A DNA stretch of 49,276 nucleotides from Burkholderiales bacterium (GTDB lineage: Bacteria; Pseudomonadota; Gammaproteobacteria; Burkholderiales; JAHFRG01), in NCBI GenBank assembly GCA_035319205.1, contig DATHDD010000047.1, positions 1 through 49,276 on the forward strand, read 5' to 3'. The position numbers were made by a program, and so were the translations under genes. The notes under the pieces were generated by a model. That model worked only from the letters and a program-made list of their open reading frames with translations, ran no database searches and was not told where the DNA came from. Shown in pieces: positions 27,950 to 39,820 of the stretch. How positions within the stretch are numbered: position 1 is the first letter of the stretch; each line of letters opens with the position of its first letter.

Positions 27950-28747
27950 GTGAAATTTCTGGACGAGTTAAAAAAAGAAGCGGAAACGCTGAAGCAAAAA
28001 GAAGCTTTGGATACCCAAGCCAAGCTGACCACGCTTGGCAAGAATTTCATGCAATTGCAGGCCAAGCTGCGCGAGATTTATGCTTACCTCGACGATCTCG
28101 TCAAACAACTTAATATAATCAAGGCGACTGTAGTGCGCTCCTACTACATCGAGGGTGTGGGGCATTTTGAGAATCTCAAACAATACGACTACTTTCTCAA
28201 TAAAAAGCACAAGAGCATAGACAACAAGGATTTCATAGATCAGATTACCTTGCGCTATAGGTGCGCTAGTGGCGCCGTATTGACAGCTGAAAAAGAATCG
28301 CCGTCGACCATCCAGGCCTTGAAAGAATATTTATGGAACTACAACATCAAATTCGAAACCCAGGAATTCAAGACTGAGCGCGGGTTCGTGCAGCGTGCGA
28401 TATTTAAAATTCCCGGTGAAGTAGTGGTGAATATTACTATTAGTGGAGATTTTGAAAAATCGCAAATCAGAATTCACACCAAAAACATGGAAAGGCTGAC
28501 TGAGCGCAATTTTACTTACGAAATTGACGAGATCAATGACGCCATGCTTGAAGAGTTTTCCAAGTATATACTCGGCAAGCCCAACAACTTTTGTCAACTC
28601 GGCAAGCACCAGCTCACGGCTTCCCGTATGGCAACGCCCAAACGGAACATTTTGGACACGCAATATCCACAGGTAGAAGAAGAGACAGGTGATAAGAAAA
28701 AAGGCCTGCTTGACTCAATCAAATCCTTGTTCCCTGAGCGCCGTTAA
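27950..28747 (+). CDS. hypothetical protein (N-terminal coiled coil, no family recognised)
   Basis: 265 aa with a GTG start and AGGAG 7 nt upstream. No signal peptide or TM segment. The stop lies 2 nt before the next ATG. Codon usage is visibly AT-richer than the flanking dap genes. Confidence 0.7.
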   Translation: MKFLDELKKEAETLKQKEALDTQAKLTTLGKNFMQLQAKLREIYAYLDDLVKQLNIIKATVVRSYYIEGVGHFENLKQYDYFLNKKHKSIDNKDFIDQITLRYRCASGAVLTAEKESPSTIQALKEYLWNYNIKFETQEFKTERGFVQRAIFKIPGEVVVNITISGDFEKSQIRIHTKNMERLTERNFTYEIDEINDAMLEEFSKYILGKPNNFCQLGKHQLTASRMATPKRNILDTQYPQVEEETGDKKKGLLDSIKSLFPERR

Positions 28748-30015: not shown

Positions 30016-32069
<2,054 letters not shown>

Positions 32070-32083
32070 AATGTACTCTATAA

Positions 32084-32105
32084 GACTTCTTACCTTGACT
32101 TCTTA
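32084..32105 (+). repeat. tandem 9-bp direct repeat GACTTCTTA (13-bp register) overlapping the -35 box
   Basis: GACTTCTTA occurs at 32084-32092 and again at 32097-32105. Confidence 0.8.
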
Positions 32106-32123
32106 TTAAGTTTCCAATATAAA
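32095..32123 (+). promoter_or_regulatory. candidate sigma70 promoter of the OMP/FecR-domain operon
   Basis: TTGACT (32095-32100), a 17-nt spacer, then TATAAA (32118-32123), in an AT-rich 130-nt spacer. GGAGG lies 6 nt before ATG 32200. Confidence 0.45.
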
Positions 32124-32199
32124 AATAGGCAAATAGTGGTAATAATTCACAAATCATAAAAATAGCCACATGGCGAAAAGCTGCTAACCGGAGGATTTA

Positions 32200-33522
32200 A
32201 TGAGGTTTACGCTCCTTTTCGCCATATTCCTGTTAGCAATCATTTCCACAAATTTCGCTTACGCTGCAGTCGCGGAAGAGGTCAAAGCAATGCTGGAACA
32301 AGGCAAAGCCAAAGAAGCGTATGAACTCGGCAAGCAGCACCCCGAGTTTCTTGGCGATCCGGTATTTGATTTTTATTACGGCGTAGCTGCTATTGACGCC
32401 GGCCATGCCGGCGAAGGCGTGCTGGCGTTGGAACGCTACATCATCAATTTCCCGGAAAATGCCAGCGCCCGCCTGGAACTTGCGCGTGGCTATTATGTGC
32501 TCGGCGAAGATGTGCGCTCCCGGGAGGAATTCTCGGCAGTTCTAAAGACCAATCCCCCTGAGGAGGTGAAGTTCAATATCCAGCGCTACCTCGACGCCAT
32601 CCGCTCGCGTGAATCGGTCTATAAAACCAGCGCGGCAGCCTTTATCGAAGCCGGTGGGGGGTATGACACCAACGTCAACGCCGGCGTGAGTAATGCCAAC
32701 ATCACCTTGCCGGTATTCGGCCCGGTCACCGTTGCAACCGCGGGAGTCAAAGCTCATTCCTGGTTTGAGTATTTCGCGCTAGGCGGTCAGTTGTCGCAGC
32801 CGGTGGCGCCCGGGGTTGGAGTTTTCGGAGGCGGCTCATTCAACGCCAAGTACAACAACGATCATCAGGATCAGGCCAACCAGTTCGACCAAAGAAATCT
32901 TAATCTGAATGCCGGCCTAAGCTATCTGAAAAACAAAAATTTATACCGTATCAGCGGCTTTTATTCTCGCATTGACGTTGACAGTGACCTGTTCCTTCAA
33001 TCGCCCGGCACCACGGCTGAATGGTATTACCAGTACGATGAGCTGCAGACTTTCAATACATTCGCCCAGTACGCGAACTTGAACTATGCTGGAACCAACA
33101 CCCCGCGCTCCTCGAATTTCTACTCGGGCGGGTTGGGTTACCGGAAGGCGTTTATCGCCAAGTTGCAGCCCCTGATTAGTTTGGGCGCAAGTTATTCCAG
33201 GGAAAACAACACCGAGGGCCGCGATGATTTGTCACGCAACATCTATTCCGGGAGCATTACTTTCGGCTTCACCCCTTTCCCAAAATGGGCGGTAAGCATT
33301 GGCGGCGCCTATCAAAGAAGCTTGTACCTGGAGCCAGACGCCTTTTTGTTAACCACTCGCGCGGACAGTTACTACACGGCAAATGCCGCGATAAGCTATG
33401 CCATTACTCCGAAACTGAGTGCGTGGGTGGAGAATCTGTATTCAAAGAACAATTCCAATATTTCGCTATATTCATATAGTAGAGAATTAGCCTCGTTCAA
33501 ACTCCGTTACGATTTCAAGTGA
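32200..33522 (+). CDS. outer-membrane protein with periplasmic TPR domain + C-terminal beta-barrel (Slam/DUF560-like architecture, candidate)
   Basis: 440 aa with a signal peptide (..NFAYA/AV), about 110 aa of TPR-like helices, then about 300 aa of Gly/Asn/Tyr-rich amphipathic strands (GGGYDTNVNAG ... FKLRYDFK). Confidence 0.6.
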   Translation: MRFTLLFAIFLLAIISTNFAYAAVAEEVKAMLEQGKAKEAYELGKQHPEFLGDPVFDFYYGVAAIDAGHAGEGVLALERYIINFPENASARLELARGYYVLGEDVRSREEFSAVLKTNPPEEVKFNIQRYLDAIRSRESVYKTSAAAFIEAGGGYDTNVNAGVSNANITLPVFGPVTVATAGVKAHSWFEYFALGGQLSQPVAPGVGVFGGGSFNAKYNNDHQDQANQFDQRNLNLNAGLSYLKNKNLYRISGFYSRIDVDSDLFLQSPGTTAEWYYQYDELQTFNTFAQYANLNYAGTNTPRSSNFYSGGLGYRKAFIAKLQPLISLGASYSRENNTEGRDDLSRNIYSGSITFGFTPFPKWAVSIGGAYQRSLYLEPDAFLLTTRADSYYTANAAISYAITPKLSAWVENLYSKNNSNISLYSYSRELASFKLRYDFK

Positions 33523-33530
33523 GGTCTGCC

Positions 33531-35144
33531 ATGAAACTGCTCAAGCTTAGCTTGCTTTTGACTATTTTATTCGCTCTTTGCGGCACGGTACATGCCGAGG
33601 TTGTCGGCAGAGTACTGATAGCTGCGGGTGACACCTCTGTGATCCGACACAACCAGGAGCTTCGCATTGCAGTCGGTTCTCCCGTTGAAGACCAAGATAC
33701 CCTCAAAACCGGTCCCGCCAGCAATATGCAGGTGCGATTCACCGATGAGAGCGTCGTGTCGCTGCGCGACCAAAGCCTGCTCAAAATCGATGAATACAAA
33801 TTCAACGGCAAGCAAGACGGCATGGAAAAAGCCTTTTTCAACCTTGTGAAAGGCGGCTTCAGGACCATCACCGGCTTGATTGGCAAGGTCAACAAAACCA
33901 ATTACGGCGTGAAAACAGCGACCGCAACCATCGGCATCCGCGGCACTAATTTTGCGCTGCTCTATTGCTCCGAAGGCAATTGCGGTGTGGCTGCCAAAAA
34001 CGGACTTTACGGCGGGGTAAGCGGGGGAATCATCGCTGCAAAAAACCGCACAGGAGAGTACCAGTATGGCTCGGGCGATTATTTCTTTATACCCAGCGAG
34101 AATGAGCCGGCAAAAAAGCTTATTGGACCTCCAGATTTCTTAGCTGATCATCTACCCGGGCAAGGACGCGTAGAAGGGCGGAAGGTAGCCTTTGAAGGAA
34201 ACGAACGGCCGGAACATGGCGGCATCGATTGGGATGGCCGTCCTAACAGGATCACTCAAGCACCGCCACAGAAAAAATACATAGTCACTGAAAACCTTTG
34301 TGACGACGGCTTTACGTGCGTGCTGCTGCCACCTTCACCACCTCCTGTCACACCATCACCTGCAGTGCTGCCTGCAGCGGGTACCAATGCGCTAGAACTT
34401 GCTTGGGCGGCAGGTTCACGCACCGACGTTGCTCAGGCATTCGAGGCAAACGGGGACATTATTACATTGTCTGGAAGCCAAATGACACTTTATTGCGTCA
34501 CCTCCACCGGTTGTGTTACCCCCTTTACCGTCTTCGATCCCGGTCAGAAGGGCACATTGGGTTCAGGCACAGTAATCGATCAGGGTAGCACCTCAATTGG
34601 TAACATGTTCTGGGGGCTTTGGGTCCCAGATCCAACAACCACTTTCGTTACTTCAACTTCTTTTGGCAGCTTCTCTGTCCCAGTCCCGTACATCTTTGGG
34701 GCACCCGCTACCAGTGTACCTAGCTCGGGCACTGTAAATTTCACCTTTGCAGGTGGGCCCAGTCCGGTTGACGGGTCGGGTACTCTCGGAACCATGACCA
34801 GTGGCCCTCTCAGAGTAGACTTCCTGAACCGAGCCGTCGGACTGGCACCAGGCTCGACCATCTCGCTATCTTTTGGTACGGGTGCGCCCAGCTATACCAT
34901 AACGACGCTTTCCGCCGGCTATGCGCCGTCTTCGACGCTAATTACGGGTACTTTGTCTGGAACTTGCAGTGGTGGGCTCTGTGGACCTTCTACGGCGACC
35001 AACGTGAGCGACAGGGTCAGCGCGCACTTTACCAGCTCAACATCAGGACTGGGGATTGCGCTTGCAGCAGCCGTCACGACCACCAGCACCTCAGCAGCAT
35101 TTGCTGCCGCCTATACATGCTCGAAAGGAACAGGTCCCTGCTGA
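33531..35144 (+). CDS. secreted FecR-domain protein with proline-rich linker and Thr/Ser/Gly-rich C-terminal module
   Basis: ATG 33531 has GAGG 6 nt upstream, and an alternative GTG at 33519 overlaps the upstream stop. The signal peptide is MKLLKLSLLLTILFALCGTVHA/EV. A FecR-like region runs from GDTSVIRHNQ to IGIRGTNFALL. A PPSPPPVTPSP linker is followed by a C-terminal region with paired Cys. Confidence 0.75.
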   Translation: MKLLKLSLLLTILFALCGTVHAEVVGRVLIAAGDTSVIRHNQELRIAVGSPVEDQDTLKTGPASNMQVRFTDESVVSLRDQSLLKIDEYKFNGKQDGMEKAFFNLVKGGFRTITGLIGKVNKTNYGVKTATATIGIRGTNFALLYCSEGNCGVAAKNGLYGGVSGGIIAAKNRTGEYQYGSGDYFFIPSENEPAKKLIGPPDFLADHLPGQGRVEGRKVAFEGNERPEHGGIDWDGRPNRITQAPPQKKYIVTENLCDDGFTCVLLPPSPPPVTPSPAVLPAAGTNALELAWAAGSRTDVAQAFEANGDIITLSGSQMTLYCVTSTGCVTPFTVFDPGQKGTLGSGTVIDQGSTSIGNMFWGLWVPDPTTTFVTSTSFGSFSVPVPYIFGAPATSVPSSGTVNFTFAGGPSPVDGSGTLGTMTSGPLRVDFLNRAVGLAPGSTISLSFGTGAPSYTITTLSAGYAPSSTLITGTLSGTCSGGLCGPSTATNVSDRVSAHFTSSTSGLGIALAAAVTTTSTSAAFAAAYTCSKGTGPC

Positions 35145-35156
35145 CTTAGCAGGGAA

Positions 35157-35948
35157 TTAAGCGCAGTCTTGCTTGATTTTGCGTGGCGCAGGCGATTCAG
35201 CCTGCGCCATAATTTTTGTTATTTCGTTTCTCCCGAGCTCAAGGCACTGCCCTTTTTTCAAGCGTGGCGGTAGCCAAATCATTCCGAAACGTACGCGGAT
35301 TAAGCGGCTGACGGTAAATCCCAGCGCTTTGAATATCCTGTGCACGACGCGGTTACGGCCTTCCTTGAGCACAATACGGTACCAGTGATTGGCACCCACT
35401 CCCCCCTGATCATTGATGCTTTCAACTTTCGCCAGCCCGTCTTCTAGCCAAACGCCTTTCCCAAGCTGAAGCATCTGCTCGGGCTTTAATCTGCCAAGGA
35501 TTCTTACTGCGTATTCGCGCTCGACTTCGTATTTCGGGTGCATCAAGCGGTTTGCGAGTTCGCCTGAATTGGTGAACATCAGCAATCCCAAAGTATTGTA
35601 ATCAAGACGCCCTATTGCGATCCATTTTGCAGAACGGATGACCGGCAATTTATCAAACACACTTGGTCGACCCTCGGGATCAGCGCGGCTTACTATTTCC
35701 CCTTCCGGTTTGTAGTAGAGAATGACCCTCGGCAATTCGGTATCAAAATTGAGTTTGATAACGCGCTTGTCAACGCTAATATGGTCGTGAAGGCCGGCTT
35801 TCATTCCCAAGACAGCGGGCTTGCCGTTGACCGTGACCCGACCCTGACGAATCAACTCTTCAATCGCGCGGCGCGAACCTACCCCTGCTTGTGCTAATAC
35901 TTTTTGGACTCGCTCTTTAGCTTCAGCGTGCTGTTTTTGATTTCGCAT
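35157..35948 (-). CDS. rluB: 23S rRNA pseudouridine synthase, RluB-like (RsuA/RluB family)
   Basis: 263 aa with an N-terminal S4 domain (VQKVLAQAGVGSRRAIEELIRQGRVTVNG) and the catalytic GRLD motif (IAIGRLDYNTLGLL). Confidence 0.82.
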   Translation of the reverse strand: MRNQKQHAEAKERVQKVLAQAGVGSRRAIEELIRQGRVTVNGKPAVLGMKAGLHDHISVDKRVIKLNFDTELPRVILYYKPEGEIVSRADPEGRPSVFDKLPVIRSAKWIAIGRLDYNTLGLLMFTNSGELANRLMHPKYEVEREYAVRILGRLKPEQMLQLGKGVWLEDGLAKVESINDQGGVGANHWYRIVLKEGRNRVVHRIFKALGFTVSRLIRVRFGMIWLPPRLKKGQCLELGRNEITKIMAQAESPAPRKIKQDCA

Positions 35949-38672: not shown

Positions 38673-39254
38673 TTAATCAAAGTGTATTTGGAAACGAACC
38701 AATTGGAGGTTTATCCCTGGGTTGGGTTCTTTGATCGAGGCATTGGACATGTGCTGAAAACGGTAGCTGAGATCGTATATGCCGCGATTTCCGAACCGGA
38801 AACCCACGCCCACATGTTCGCCAAACTGAAAGGCGGTGCCTGATCTTATGTGCTCGGTTATGGTGGTGCTCGTCCATAGGTGCGCCCCCACCCCGGCATC
38901 AAAATAAGGCGCGATAGTAGTAAGGTCAGTTTGCTGGTAACGAAAAGTCGGGGTCACACTGAAATCCCCAACATCGTTGTTGACAGGCCCACCGCTGCGT
39001 CCATGTAAAACTCCAGCCGAAGCATCCCAGTATCCGCCAAGATGCCAGCCATGCGCAGCGAACCATTGTTTACCCCAGTCCCATTGCAGCCCAACACGTC
39101 CCACATCTACCCCGTCTCCATGTCCTGCTTCTATAGACACACTGTCAATCGCACTTGCATTAAAACTCGCACTTATAAGAGAGATCAAAATAAAAGCACT
39201 AAGTCTTTTCACTCTGTGTTGATCCTTAGGATTCAGTAATTGTGTGGGCATCAT
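38673..39254 (-). CDS. lipid A 3-O-deacylase PagL-like / acyloxyacyl hydrolase outer-membrane protein
   Basis: 193 aa small beta-barrel with the C-terminal catalytic-type motif FQHMSNASIKEPNPGINL. The likely true start is GTG 39212, giving (M)KRLSAFILISLISASFNASA/ID, a canonical signal peptide. Confidence 0.7.
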   Translation of the reverse strand: MMPTQLLNPKDQHRVKRLSAFILISLISASFNASAIDSVSIEAGHGDGVDVGRVGLQWDWGKQWFAAHGWHLGGYWDASAGVLHGRSGGPVNNDVGDFSVTPTFRYQQTDLTTIAPYFDAGVGAHLWTSTTITEHIRSGTAFQFGEHVGVGFRFGNRGIYDLSYRFQHMSNASIKEPNPGINLQLVRFQIHFD

Positions 39255-39268
39255 AAAGCAAAAGCATC

Positions 39269-39367
39269 AAGGAGGCGAGCCTTGCCCCCGGCACTTGCAG
39301 AATATAGCTGTGGCTGCTTCCTTCCGGACCTGACCAGGTTCACTATCGTGCAATGCGGGGAGGCCCG
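39269..39367 (-). ncRNA. ffs: signal recognition particle RNA (4.5S, small bacterial type)
   Basis: The minus strand contains ACCTGGTCAGGTCCGGAAGGAAGCAGCCACAG, matching the universally conserved SRP domain IV (E. coli CCAGGUCAGGUCCGGAAGGAAGCAGCC). The 5' GGCGGGCC pairs with the 3' GGCTCGCC. Ends are accurate to within a few nt. Confidence 0.88.
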
Positions 39368-39820
39368 CCGTAACCGTTAAAACACTAGATCAGCATCTCC
39401 AGTTGCACTAACAACTGCCAGTAAATAAATCATGTACTGCCCTTAGCCTGCAAACTTTAACCTTGCTGGGACCACTTGTTTGCGGCTATCTGAATCTCTC
39501 AGTGGTGTGGTTACCAATGGCATTAAGCAATGATATGGCATTTTAACAAATCCTATTCACTCTCGTCGGAATTGATCGATTTGTAAGATTACACCGCAGA
39601 GCCGGTACTGCTTTTTTTGCTCGGCCAAGAACTGTGTCATAGTCACGAAAAGTCGCGCTTACTGGCTTTAGGAAAGTGCGTGGAGATGTACACAACACGC
39701 TACGCCAAGTTTAGGCACCACCAGTGTTTACACTAAAAAAATAACGAAATGAAATAGAGCTGGCTATTATTCAATCGGTATTTTACAGCTAATGTATTAC
39801 TGGGAGATAATAATATAACA

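Follow-up and report, generated by a model that had tools for sequence, protein, structure and literature searches.

A candidate type 11 secretion pair of Burkholderiales: a Slam-family outer-membrane protein and a FecR-domain protein with a TbpB/hemophilin-like C-terminal module

The stretch of DNA analysed here, referred to as the window, comprises 49,276 nucleotides (nt) of contig DATHDD010000047.1 from a Burkholderiales bacterium (assembly GCA_035319205.1). Two open reading frames (ORFs) of its forward strand, ORF1 and ORF2, lie one behind the other between a methyltransferase-like (prmB-like) gene upstream and a convergent pseudouridine synthase-like (rluB-like) gene downstream (Table 1). 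A first-pass annotation, made from the sequence alone, had described two coupled genes at this very place, and had proposed that they encode a translocator of the Slam type and a secreted FecR-domain protein with a TbpB-like C-terminus. The coupled layout is present as described: ORF1 ends with its stop codon at 33522, and ORF2 starts with ATG at 33531, 6 nt behind a GAGG, and ends with the stop codon 35142-35144; an in-frame GTG at 33519 is an alternative start. The gap between the genes amounts to 8 nt and is 8-10 nt in the gene calls of four related loci (L001, L004, L006 and L167). From the features described below, ORF1 and ORF2 probably constitute a dedicated type 11 (Slam-like) secretion pair in which ORF2 would be the passenger of its own channel.

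The assignment of ORF1 is based on profile matches and on a structural model. In a Pfam scan, ORF1 matched SlipAM/DUF560 (PF04575) at residues 226-431 with 31.8 bits (cutoff 22), and weak matches to TPR_16 and TPR_19, below cutoff, were found at residues 62-122. For some of the 1218 homologues of ORF1, the NCBI name is "surface lipoprotein assembly modifier" or "DUF560 domain-containing protein". A family consensus was built from 70 homologues of Beta- and Gammaproteobacteria; its best match was again SlipAM (56.4 bits, E 4.4e-15), which was aligned from position 10 to 288 of 288 and thus over the entire barrel, and TPR_19 now came out above cutoff (28.4 vs 25 bits). BBP2_2 and other barrel families aligned only to the last ~70-90 residues of the consensus (~70 in the case of BBP2_2). 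When 38 single relatives were scanned, TPR_19 was found in 36, DUF2860 in 12 and the PelB barrel in 2. The AlphaFold2 model of ORF1 had a predicted local distance difference test (pLDDT) score of 82.9 and displayed helices at residues 37-141 followed by 14 long strands at residues 144-439, with a low-confidence loop at 164-182, in line with the TPR-like helices and mid-size barrel that had been read from the sequence. Comparison of the model with solved structures by Foldseek gave the best target-normalised template modelling (TM) scores, 0.67-0.70, with the 14-stranded OmpG, and the TPR-plus-barrel exporters BcsC and PelB were matched as well. A single-sequence search of the PDB returned TPR noise only, and the family profile found only TPR proteins there, e.g. 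BcsC and aspartyl hydroxylase; since no Slam-named entry was obtained with the profile, the claims of 14 strands and of Slam-likeness rest on the predicted model and on Pfam. A 14-stranded DUF560 barrel with a periplasmic TPR domain is the architecture described for Slam and type 11 secretion system (T11SS) proteins (PMC8406197). Taken together, the profile matches identify ORF1 as a predicted member of the Slam/T11SS (DUF560) outer-membrane family, as had been proposed at first pass.

ORF2, of which 238 homologues were detected, begins with a signal peptide. The protein is predicted to be exported, cut by signal peptidase I and left unlipidated, because the family keeps the pattern AHA↓E/D-VVGRVL at the cleavage site (arrow), with an AxA site in 76 of 120 members and a lipobox-like string in only 4; the absence of a lipobox had been noted before. 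The sole Pfam match of ORF2 was FecR (PF04773; residues 56-153, 41.9 bits vs a cutoff of 24), and the FecR-like region was matched in all 120 homologues. Its GIRGT motif (G135-I136-R137-G138-T139; 33933-33947 of the window) was invariant among 42 aligned homologues. In anti-sigma factors, FoxR among them, the FecR domain contains a conserved Gly-Thr at which the protein cleaves itself by an N-O acyl shift. Neither a cytoplasmic anti-sigma domain nor a transmembrane helix or other membrane anchor was found in ORF2, whose signal peptide runs straight into VVGRVL; the earlier remark that the anti-sigma half is lacking thus holds. Weak NCBIfam matches were obtained with the FecR-domain proteins LipL45 and Lsa33 of Leptospira, the latter being a surface adhesin by its NCBIfam name, and this similarity is a possible precedent for a FecR domain at the cell surface. 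A PDB search with the single sequence of ORF2 gave nothing. The proline-rich linker behind the FecR-like domain and the paired cysteines were both recovered as annotated. Five short-range pairs (146/151, 257/263, 322/328, 479/484 and 530/537) were read from the translation, and such CX4-6C pairs would fit an extracytoplasmic protein.

The remaining part of ORF2 consists of a region of ~100 residues (276-385), here called handle-like, and of a C-terminal module of ~145 residues, the former being less conserved than the latter. The first-pass annotation had seen a TbpB-like module at about 34701-35078; a real conserved domain is present there, with slightly wider boundaries (Table 1). Hidden Markov model (HMM) iteration placed it at the very end of the protein for 112 of 120 homologues, and two copies were found in relatives of ~770 amino acids (aa). 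Of the 8 homologues in which the HMM detected no module, 2 were examined by hhalign and both carry it (91.5% and 98.9% probability). The HMM of the handle-like region also found two matches per protein in the two-lobed relatives of ~770 aa, in both cases immediately ahead of a barrel module, and the two lobes of one such protein align to each other beyond the barrel. Since the handle-like region recurs before each barrel copy, the repeat unit of the family would be the handle-like region plus the barrel. A handle and a barrel also make up the lobes of TbpB and hemophilin (bioRxiv 10.1101/2023.03.29.534853; PMC12282271).

Four independent libraries pointed to Slam cargo, and to Slam cargo only, as the relatives of this module. 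An alignment of 35 diverse module copies, A1, served as the source of a profile and a consensus. Searched against 177,635 distinct PDB sequences at E<=10, the profile found three sequences, all of them hemophilin or TbpB: hemophilin 8glo (E 0.0066), hemophilin 8gm3 (E 0.0079) and the TbpB C-lobe 5kkx (E 0.21). In Pfam at E<=10, the consensus matched a single family, TbpB_B_D (PF01298), at sub-threshold score (E 0.002) over positions 1-122 of 126, and in NCBIfam a single model, NF041636 "Slam-dependent surface lipoprotein" (slam_lipo), likewise below threshold (E 1.6e-7). Among the 35 single copies, NF041636 was matched by 4 and TbpB_B_D by 2 (E 0.049), scans of individual members against Pfam being otherwise almost empty. 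When A1 was aligned by hhalign with homologues of the hemophilin barrel, which themselves carry PF01298, the probability was 92.2% (E 5.7e-7); the control, A1 against the membrane barrel of ORF1, gave 0.2%. The AlphaFold2 model of the module of ORF2 itself (pLDDT 91.4) is a small all-beta domain with ten strand segments in its DSSP string. In a Foldseek search of the PDB, the TbpB C-lobe took rank 1 (probability 0.92) and a TbpB-transferrin complex rank 3 (probability 0.98, TM 0.53), the remaining matches being mostly other small beta-barrels, e.g. avidins, OmpX and lipocalins. We read the homology to Slam cargo barrels as remote but genuine and specific, on the strength of these profile and model comparisons, and do not claim formal membership in PF01298. 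A membrane-embedded, OmpX-like barrel at this place was also considered and is unlikely: the module ends with F/Y-K-R and has no terminal aromatic residue, polar Thr, Ser and Asn occupy the would-be lipid-facing positions of the alternating pattern, and the hhalign control against the ORF1 barrel was negative.

Conservation of the two genes as neighbours was analysed in two sets of loci. The FecR-seeded set was collected with the ORF2 family from one genome per GTDB species, and the best 80 of at least 595 confirmed loci were scored; the channel-seeded set comprised the 80 metagenomic loci closest to ORF1. In the former, a homologue of ORF1 was found immediately upstream and on the same strand in 76 loci, two were cut by the contig end and two had none (76 of 78 assessable loci); six loci with stop-to-stop ORFs running far upstream were judged individually and counted as paired. 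In the latter, the FecR gene came next in 73 loci and the other seven stopped at the contig edge (73 of 73 assessable). The pairing is almost obligate. The pair is kept together across Beta- and Gammaproteobacteria while the flanking genes vary by lineage, close relatives sharing the neighbourhood of the window; the neighbourship, which the first-pass annotation had named as a test of its proposal, is borne out in differing contexts. Since the biggest clusters of neighbours were spurious antisense ORFs of GC-rich genomes, only clearly coding families were used for the recurrent neighbours: one lineage has housekeeping genes beside the pair, other lineages have CHASE2 cyclases. Some loci have two cargo genes behind a single channel gene. 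In Sulfuritortus calidifontis (L004, AP018721.1, 603-9674), the pair (435 and 557 aa) lies near MlaA and GreA and stands back to back, on the opposite strand, with a second unit made up of a SlipAM/TPR_Slam protein (459 aa) and two FecR proteins (265 and 1100 aa). Related loci were also found in further cultured bacteria, e.g. Dechloromonas sp. ZS-1 (L021) and Marinobacterium lacunae AK27 (L079). Three further pair-bearing loci, L047 (contig JBLNDP010000022.1), L051 and L032, are labelled as metagenome-assembled genomes of Clostridia, Rhizobium or Enterobacteriaceae, which looks like mis-binning or loose naming; these are hardly the true hosts.

Exceptions within the module family revealed which part of ORF2 the channel gene follows. 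A search with the A1 profile over 1.84 billion representative proteins, clustered at 50% identity, gave 1801 clusters at E<=0.001 and 813 at E<=1e-10, with proteins of up to 3351 aa and up to 8 matched module stretches. Of the top 145 new representatives, 108 start with a FecR-like domain and most others look like fragments; in nearly all of the 145, the last module ends a few residues from the C-terminus. This group (P0241-P0385) includes giants of 1000-3351 aa with 3-8 tandem modules, mostly FecR-like at the start, and in P0248, P0291, P0320 and P0349 160-640 aa follow the last module. Two loci have the module but no FecR domain. P0340 (L167, 694-3491) has a Peptidase_M23 N-terminus (35.4 vs 28.7 bits) in place of FecR, then a handle-like region and the barrel, and lies 8 nt downstream of a gene of the ORF1 family (E 1.5e-135); by its domain matches, the locus is a natural swap of FecR for Peptidase_M23. 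P0288 (L168, 3192-6911) is a single ORF of 1239 aa in which an ORF1-like region (39-412), matching TPR_Slam and SlipAM, is followed by three handle-barrel lobes; it comes from one metagenomic contig and may be a Rosetta-stone fusion or an artefact of assembly or gene calling. Conversely, in the two channel-less loci of the FecR-seeded set (L073 and L086), the protein is short and FecR-only, the C-terminal module being absent. Because L167 and L168 keep channel and module without FecR and L073 and L086 are devoid of both module and channel, these loci show the channel gene to go with the handle-barrel module and not with the FecR domain, as is expected of a targeting domain.

The coordinates of all features are compiled in Table 1. 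The first-pass annotation had given the pair a promoter of its own: a TTGACT-17-TATAAA arrangement is present in the sequence, but a consensus promoter scan of 31900-35400 reported no site, which is explained by the second hexamer having no T at position 6. A GGAGG is present ahead of the ATG of ORF1. The inverted repeat across the stop codon of ORF2 could be a terminator shared with the convergent rluB-like gene, judging from its position; it is not followed by a T-run on the forward strand. The remainder of the window is housekeeping and encodes BamA, SMC, LigA, GlnD, PagL, DnaX, RecR, the signal recognition particle (SRP) RNA and tRNA-Ser.

Table 1 Features of the ORF1-ORF2 locus, in positions of the window
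Feature	Position	Strand	Description and basis
Promoter-like element, candidate	32095..32123	+	TTGACT 32095-32100, 17-nt spacer, TATAAA 32118-32123; read by eye, 5' of ORF1
ORF1	32200..33522	+	440 aa; Slam/T11SS-family outer-membrane protein (predicted); PF04575 match and homologues
ORF1 signal peptide	32200..32265	+	MRFTLLFAIFLLAIISTNFAYA, then A; read from sequence, N-terminus conserved in family
ORF1 periplasmic TPR-like helical domain	32308..32622	+	residues 37-141, ~105 aa; helices in AlphaFold2 model
ORF1 14-stranded beta-barrel	32629..33516	+	residues 144-439; AlphaFold2 model
Coupling junction	33520..33533	+	ORF1 TGA 33520-33522, overlapping GAGG 33521-33524, 6 nt, ORF2 ATG
ORF2	33531..35144	+	537 aa; predicted secreted FecR-domain protein, putative cargo; 238 homologues
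ORF2 signal peptide	33531..33596	+	MKLLKLSLLLTILFALCGTVHA, then EV; signal peptidase I type (VHA↓EV), no lipobox; pattern reading
ORF2 FecR-like N-terminal domain	33597..34175	+	residues 23-215; Pfam core 56-153; GIRGT 135-139; C146/C151
Pro-rich linker PPSPPPVTPSP	34329..34361	+	ORF2 residues 267-277; read from translation
Handle-like region	34356..34685	+	ORF2 residues 276-385, ahead of barrel module; HMM repeats
C-terminal TbpB/hemophilin-type module, putative Slam-targeting domain	34683..35120	+	ORF2 residues 385-530, ~145 aa; local HMM iteration
Inverted repeat TCCCTGC-N7-GCAGGGA	35135..35155	.	across ORF2 stop, in 12-nt gap to convergent rluB-like gene

Some details of the surroundings were recorded as well. 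The longest ORF of the prmB-like gene starts at 31095 and has 79 nt in common with the end of a dapE-like gene, whose stop lies at 31173; relatives of the prmB-like gene are called at 294 aa and, therefore, the true start probably lies further downstream than 31095. A 265-aa ORF at 27950-28747, upstream of a PilT/T2SSE-like gene, had no Pfam match, and a 263-aa counterpart is kept at the same place in L001-L003. The gene of the PagL lipid A 3-O-deacylase (38673-39254, reverse strand) adjoins the SRP RNA (39271-39369, reverse strand) and has the same position after dnaX in L001-L003.

If the pair is a secretion pair, ORF1 and ORF2 would both cross the inner membrane via Sec and would be cut by signal peptidase I. 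The 14-stranded DUF560-type barrel of ORF1 would then be embedded in the outer membrane, and the TPR domain would face the periplasm. ORF1 would recognise the C-terminal TbpB/hemophilin-type barrel of ORF2 and carry ORF2 as a whole across the outer membrane. Having no lipid anchor, ORF2 would be released or stay associated with the surface, like hemophilin, and its FecR-type domain, a protein-interaction domain, would thereby be placed outside the cell. In this pathway, we infer that ORF2 is translocated, in which direction this happens, where the FecR domain ends up and what it binds.

A neighbour that had escaped the first-pass annotation bears on the function of the pair. In 23 of the 80 FecR-seeded genome loci, a gene encoding a CHASE2 domain with a class III adenylate/guanylate cyclase (~720-770 aa; Pfam) adjoins the pair, on either side and on either strand (L014, L019-L022, L027, L031, L036, L038, L039, L043, L055, L059, L064, L067-L069, L073, L074, L076, L079, L082, L085 and L127). 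In one of these loci, L073, the cyclase gene is directly followed by the short FecR-only protein mentioned above, with no channel gene. A CHASE2 protein was not found by tblastn in the window, and only one of the 80 channel-seeded loci closest to ORF1 has the gene, many of these contigs being short. Links between FecR and CHASE2 have been reported: in Burkholderia a LysM-FecR protein is linked with a CHASE2 kinase (PMC5192318), and for Campylobacterota the CHASE2 cyclase cluster is described as including a TPR protein as well as an outer-membrane protein with a FecR domain (PMC9239204). The CHASE2 cyclases CyaK and CyaD of S. meliloti are reported to need the outer-membrane protein NsrA (PMC7529298, PMC13001267); a tblastn search of plasmids with the FecR domain, made in order to find NsrA of S. 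meliloti, gave only weak, unrelated matches. The recurrent CHASE2 neighbour suggests a role in envelope signalling and not in the capture of nutrients.

Several findings weigh against a secretion pair of the Slam type. On the side of ORF1, the TPR_Slam model (PF24575) was not matched, no Slam-named entry was found in the PDB sequence searches or among the top 50 Foldseek matches of the model, and BBP2_2 was found in 32 of the 38 single relatives vs SlipAM in 20; because of the latter numbers, the clade is, in terms of Pfam profiles, a divergent one within DUF560/SlipAM. On the side of ORF2, the module consensus stayed below the cutoffs of PF01298 (19.1 vs 26 bits) and NF041636 (31.7 vs 80 bits), the module of ORF2 alone matched neither NCBIfam nor TbpB_B_D, and none of its Foldseek matches reached E<=0.001, those with TbpB having E-values of 0.09-0.15 and TM-scores of only 0.43-0.53. 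The BBP2_2 counts and the sub-threshold module matches would also suit a generic TPR-plus-barrel protein as ORF1, i.e. a BBP2_2-type porin or a PgaA/BcsC/PelB-like polysaccharide exporter, with a periplasmic ORF2 merely docking on or regulating it and a convergent likeness to Slam cargo; the DUF2860 and PelB barrel matches among the relatives and the appearance of BcsC and PelB in the Foldseek and PDB profile searches speak for it too. However, BBP2_2 covers just the last ~70 residues of the consensus while SlipAM covers the full barrel, and the ORF1 model has 14 strands and ~105 residues of helices, whereas a larger barrel and a long TPR array are expected of exporters. The barrels of BcsC and PelB are larger and have 16 strands. 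Moreover, no gene for a glycosyltransferase or another polysaccharide function recurs near the pair, no synthase gene lies near it or recurs across loci, and four independent libraries returned only Slam cargo for the module of ORF2; we consider a generic barrel quite unlikely. A classical FecR-type anti-sigma factor of a FecI-FecR-FecA system, to which the Pfam FecR match alone would point, is contradicted by the architecture of ORF2: the cleavable signal peptide stands directly before FecR, and anti-sigma domain and transmembrane helix are missing. Furthermore, neither an extracytoplasmic function (ECF) sigma factor nor a TonB-dependent receptor was found among the ORFs flanking the pair, which are housekeeping genes, or in the ten large ORFs of the window that were scanned against Pfam, and both are absent from the recurrent neighbour families. 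The earlier statement that no fecI or TonB-receptor partner lies in the window thus stands for the ORFs covered, and we give the anti-sigma explanation practically no credence.

A weightier alternative arises from the CHASE2 link. The FecR domain of classical FecR works in the periplasm. If the FecR domain of ORF2 were to act on a periplasmic CHASE2 domain, complete export would bring it to the wrong compartment, which is a further point against secretion of the whole protein. The pair might instead form a sensor arm across the outer membrane, in which ORF1 exposes only the C-terminal handle-barrel lobe or lobes of ORF2, which bind a ligand like the lobes of TbpB and hemophilin, whereas the FecR domain remains periplasmic, held by the Pro-rich linker, and passes the signal to an inner-membrane cyclase or kinase by way of the periplasmic CHASE2 domain of the latter. 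Such an arm would correspond, with two proteins, to the NsrA-CyaK route of S. meliloti. The cyclase genes beside the pair in the FecR-seeded loci, the arrangement in L073, the FecR-CHASE2 linkage reported e.g. for the LysM-FecR protein and CHASE2 kinase of Burkholderia (PMC5192318) and the reported requirement of NsrA for signalling to CHASE2 cyclases (PMC7529298, PMC13001267) all argue for such an arm. But there is no CHASE2 gene in the window and just the single one in the closest channel-seeded loci, known Slam/T11SS cargo is exported whole, be it a surface lipoprotein of the TbpB type or free hemophilin (PMC12282271; bioRxiv 10.1101/2023.03.29.534853), a threaded protein being without known precedent in this system, and LipL45 and Lsa33 of Leptospira are described as surface proteins, which makes a FecR domain at the surface possible. 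The sensor arm is, on balance, an unlikely alternative, though one to be taken seriously, and the dedicated secretion pair remains the explanation that we consider probable.

Among characterised systems, hemophilin/HphA with its Slam homologue HsmA, a T11SS that secretes a soluble, non-lipidated cargo, is a close parallel to such a secretion pair. Both have a Slam-family outer-membrane gene adjacent to a cargo, putative in the case of ORF2, that takes the Sec/signal peptidase I route and has no lipobox (bioRxiv 10.1101/2023.03.29.534853), ORF2 would share with hemophilin the order of an N-terminal functional domain, a handle and a small C-terminal barrel, and the module profile of ORF2 matched 8glo and 8gm3 as well as, by hhalign, the hemophilin barrel alignment (92%). 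Unlike hemophilin, whose functional domain is a haem clamp, ORF2 has a FecR-type N-terminal domain, and the similarity is at profile level only; unlike in the hemophilin/HsmA locus, genes for a TonB-dependent receptor, a haem oxygenase or TonB are absent from the vicinity of ORF1 and ORF2, the channel gene comes first with a gap of 8 nt, and the hosts are environmental Beta- and Gammaproteobacteria. With TbpB/LbpB and Slam1 of Neisseria, the pair would share the lobe of a handle plus an 8-stranded barrel, and relatives of ORF2 have 2-8 such predicted lobes in tandem; TbpB was also the best Foldseek match of the module, and PF01298 the sole Pfam match of its consensus. In contrast to TbpB and LbpB, ORF2 is predicted to be unlipidated, its effector domain is FecR-like and a transferrin-receptor context is missing. 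From the FecR/PupR/FoxR anti-sigma factors, with which it has in common the Pfam FecR domain including the region of the conserved G-T motif, ORF2 differs in having neither a cytoplasmic anti-sigma domain nor a membrane anchor nor FecI or FecA partners. With the FecR-CHASE2 systems of Burkholderia, Campylobacterota and, putatively, S. meliloti, the pair has in common an exported FecR domain without the anti-sigma half, and a CHASE2 cyclase stands beside the pair in 23 of 80 related loci; however, none of the reports on them names a Slam-family channel or a TbpB-type barrel, and CHASE2 is missing from the 49-kb window.

ORF1, with its DUF560 TPR-plus-barrel architecture and its lineage of water and soil type, resembles the environmental T11SS/DUF560 proteins outside cluster 1 (Grossman et al.), and environmental DUF560 clusters are reported without a characterised member (PMC8406197, PMC12282271). 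Type 11 secretion is characterised only in animal-associated bacteria, with nutrient-capture proteins or adhesins as cargo, and which cargo belongs to the many environmental DUF560 channels is treated as an open question (PMC8406197, PMC12282271). In the published catalogue of T11SS cargo, cluster 1 has about ten predicted architectures and cluster 3 has DUF1194 (PMC8406197, PMC12282271), and a FecR-domain cargo is not in it; FecR appears in this literature only as a neighbouring regulator domain, alongside sigma-70 and TonB (PMC8406197, PMC12282271). Our literature search found no paper that describes a FecR-domain T11SS cargo and none with DUF560 and FecR together, in agreement with the first-pass annotation, to which no described non-lipidated FecR-domain cargo of such a translocator was known. 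In NCBI, some homologues of ORF1 carry the name "surface lipoprotein assembly modifier" and some of ORF2 the name "FecR family protein", each on its own, and no source linking both was found. The pair would thus combine a known secretion family with a new, large class of putative cargo and a probable new functional context.

In sum, ORF1 belongs to a clade of environmental channels that nearly always comes with a partner, which retains a predicted address barrel of the TbpB/hemophilin type yet carries a FecR-type domain and is a candidate cargo for environmental T11SS. Through its frequent CHASE2 cyclase neighbours, the system is linked to signal transduction. We also entertain, as a speculative and rather doubtful idea, that the pair is a modular sensory antenna of the outer membrane, with TbpB-type lobes outside and the periplasmic FecR domain signalling to CHASE2 cyclases or kinases. 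If this were true, it would provide a route from extracellular macromolecules to cyclic-nucleotide signalling in a large group of bacteria, identify the long-unknown input of CHASE2 sensors and mean that T11SS components can build, beyond protein export, a threaded signalling device across the membrane. Confirmation of the secretion pair would extend the known cargo repertoire of the T11SS beyond nutrient capture and into envelope signalling.

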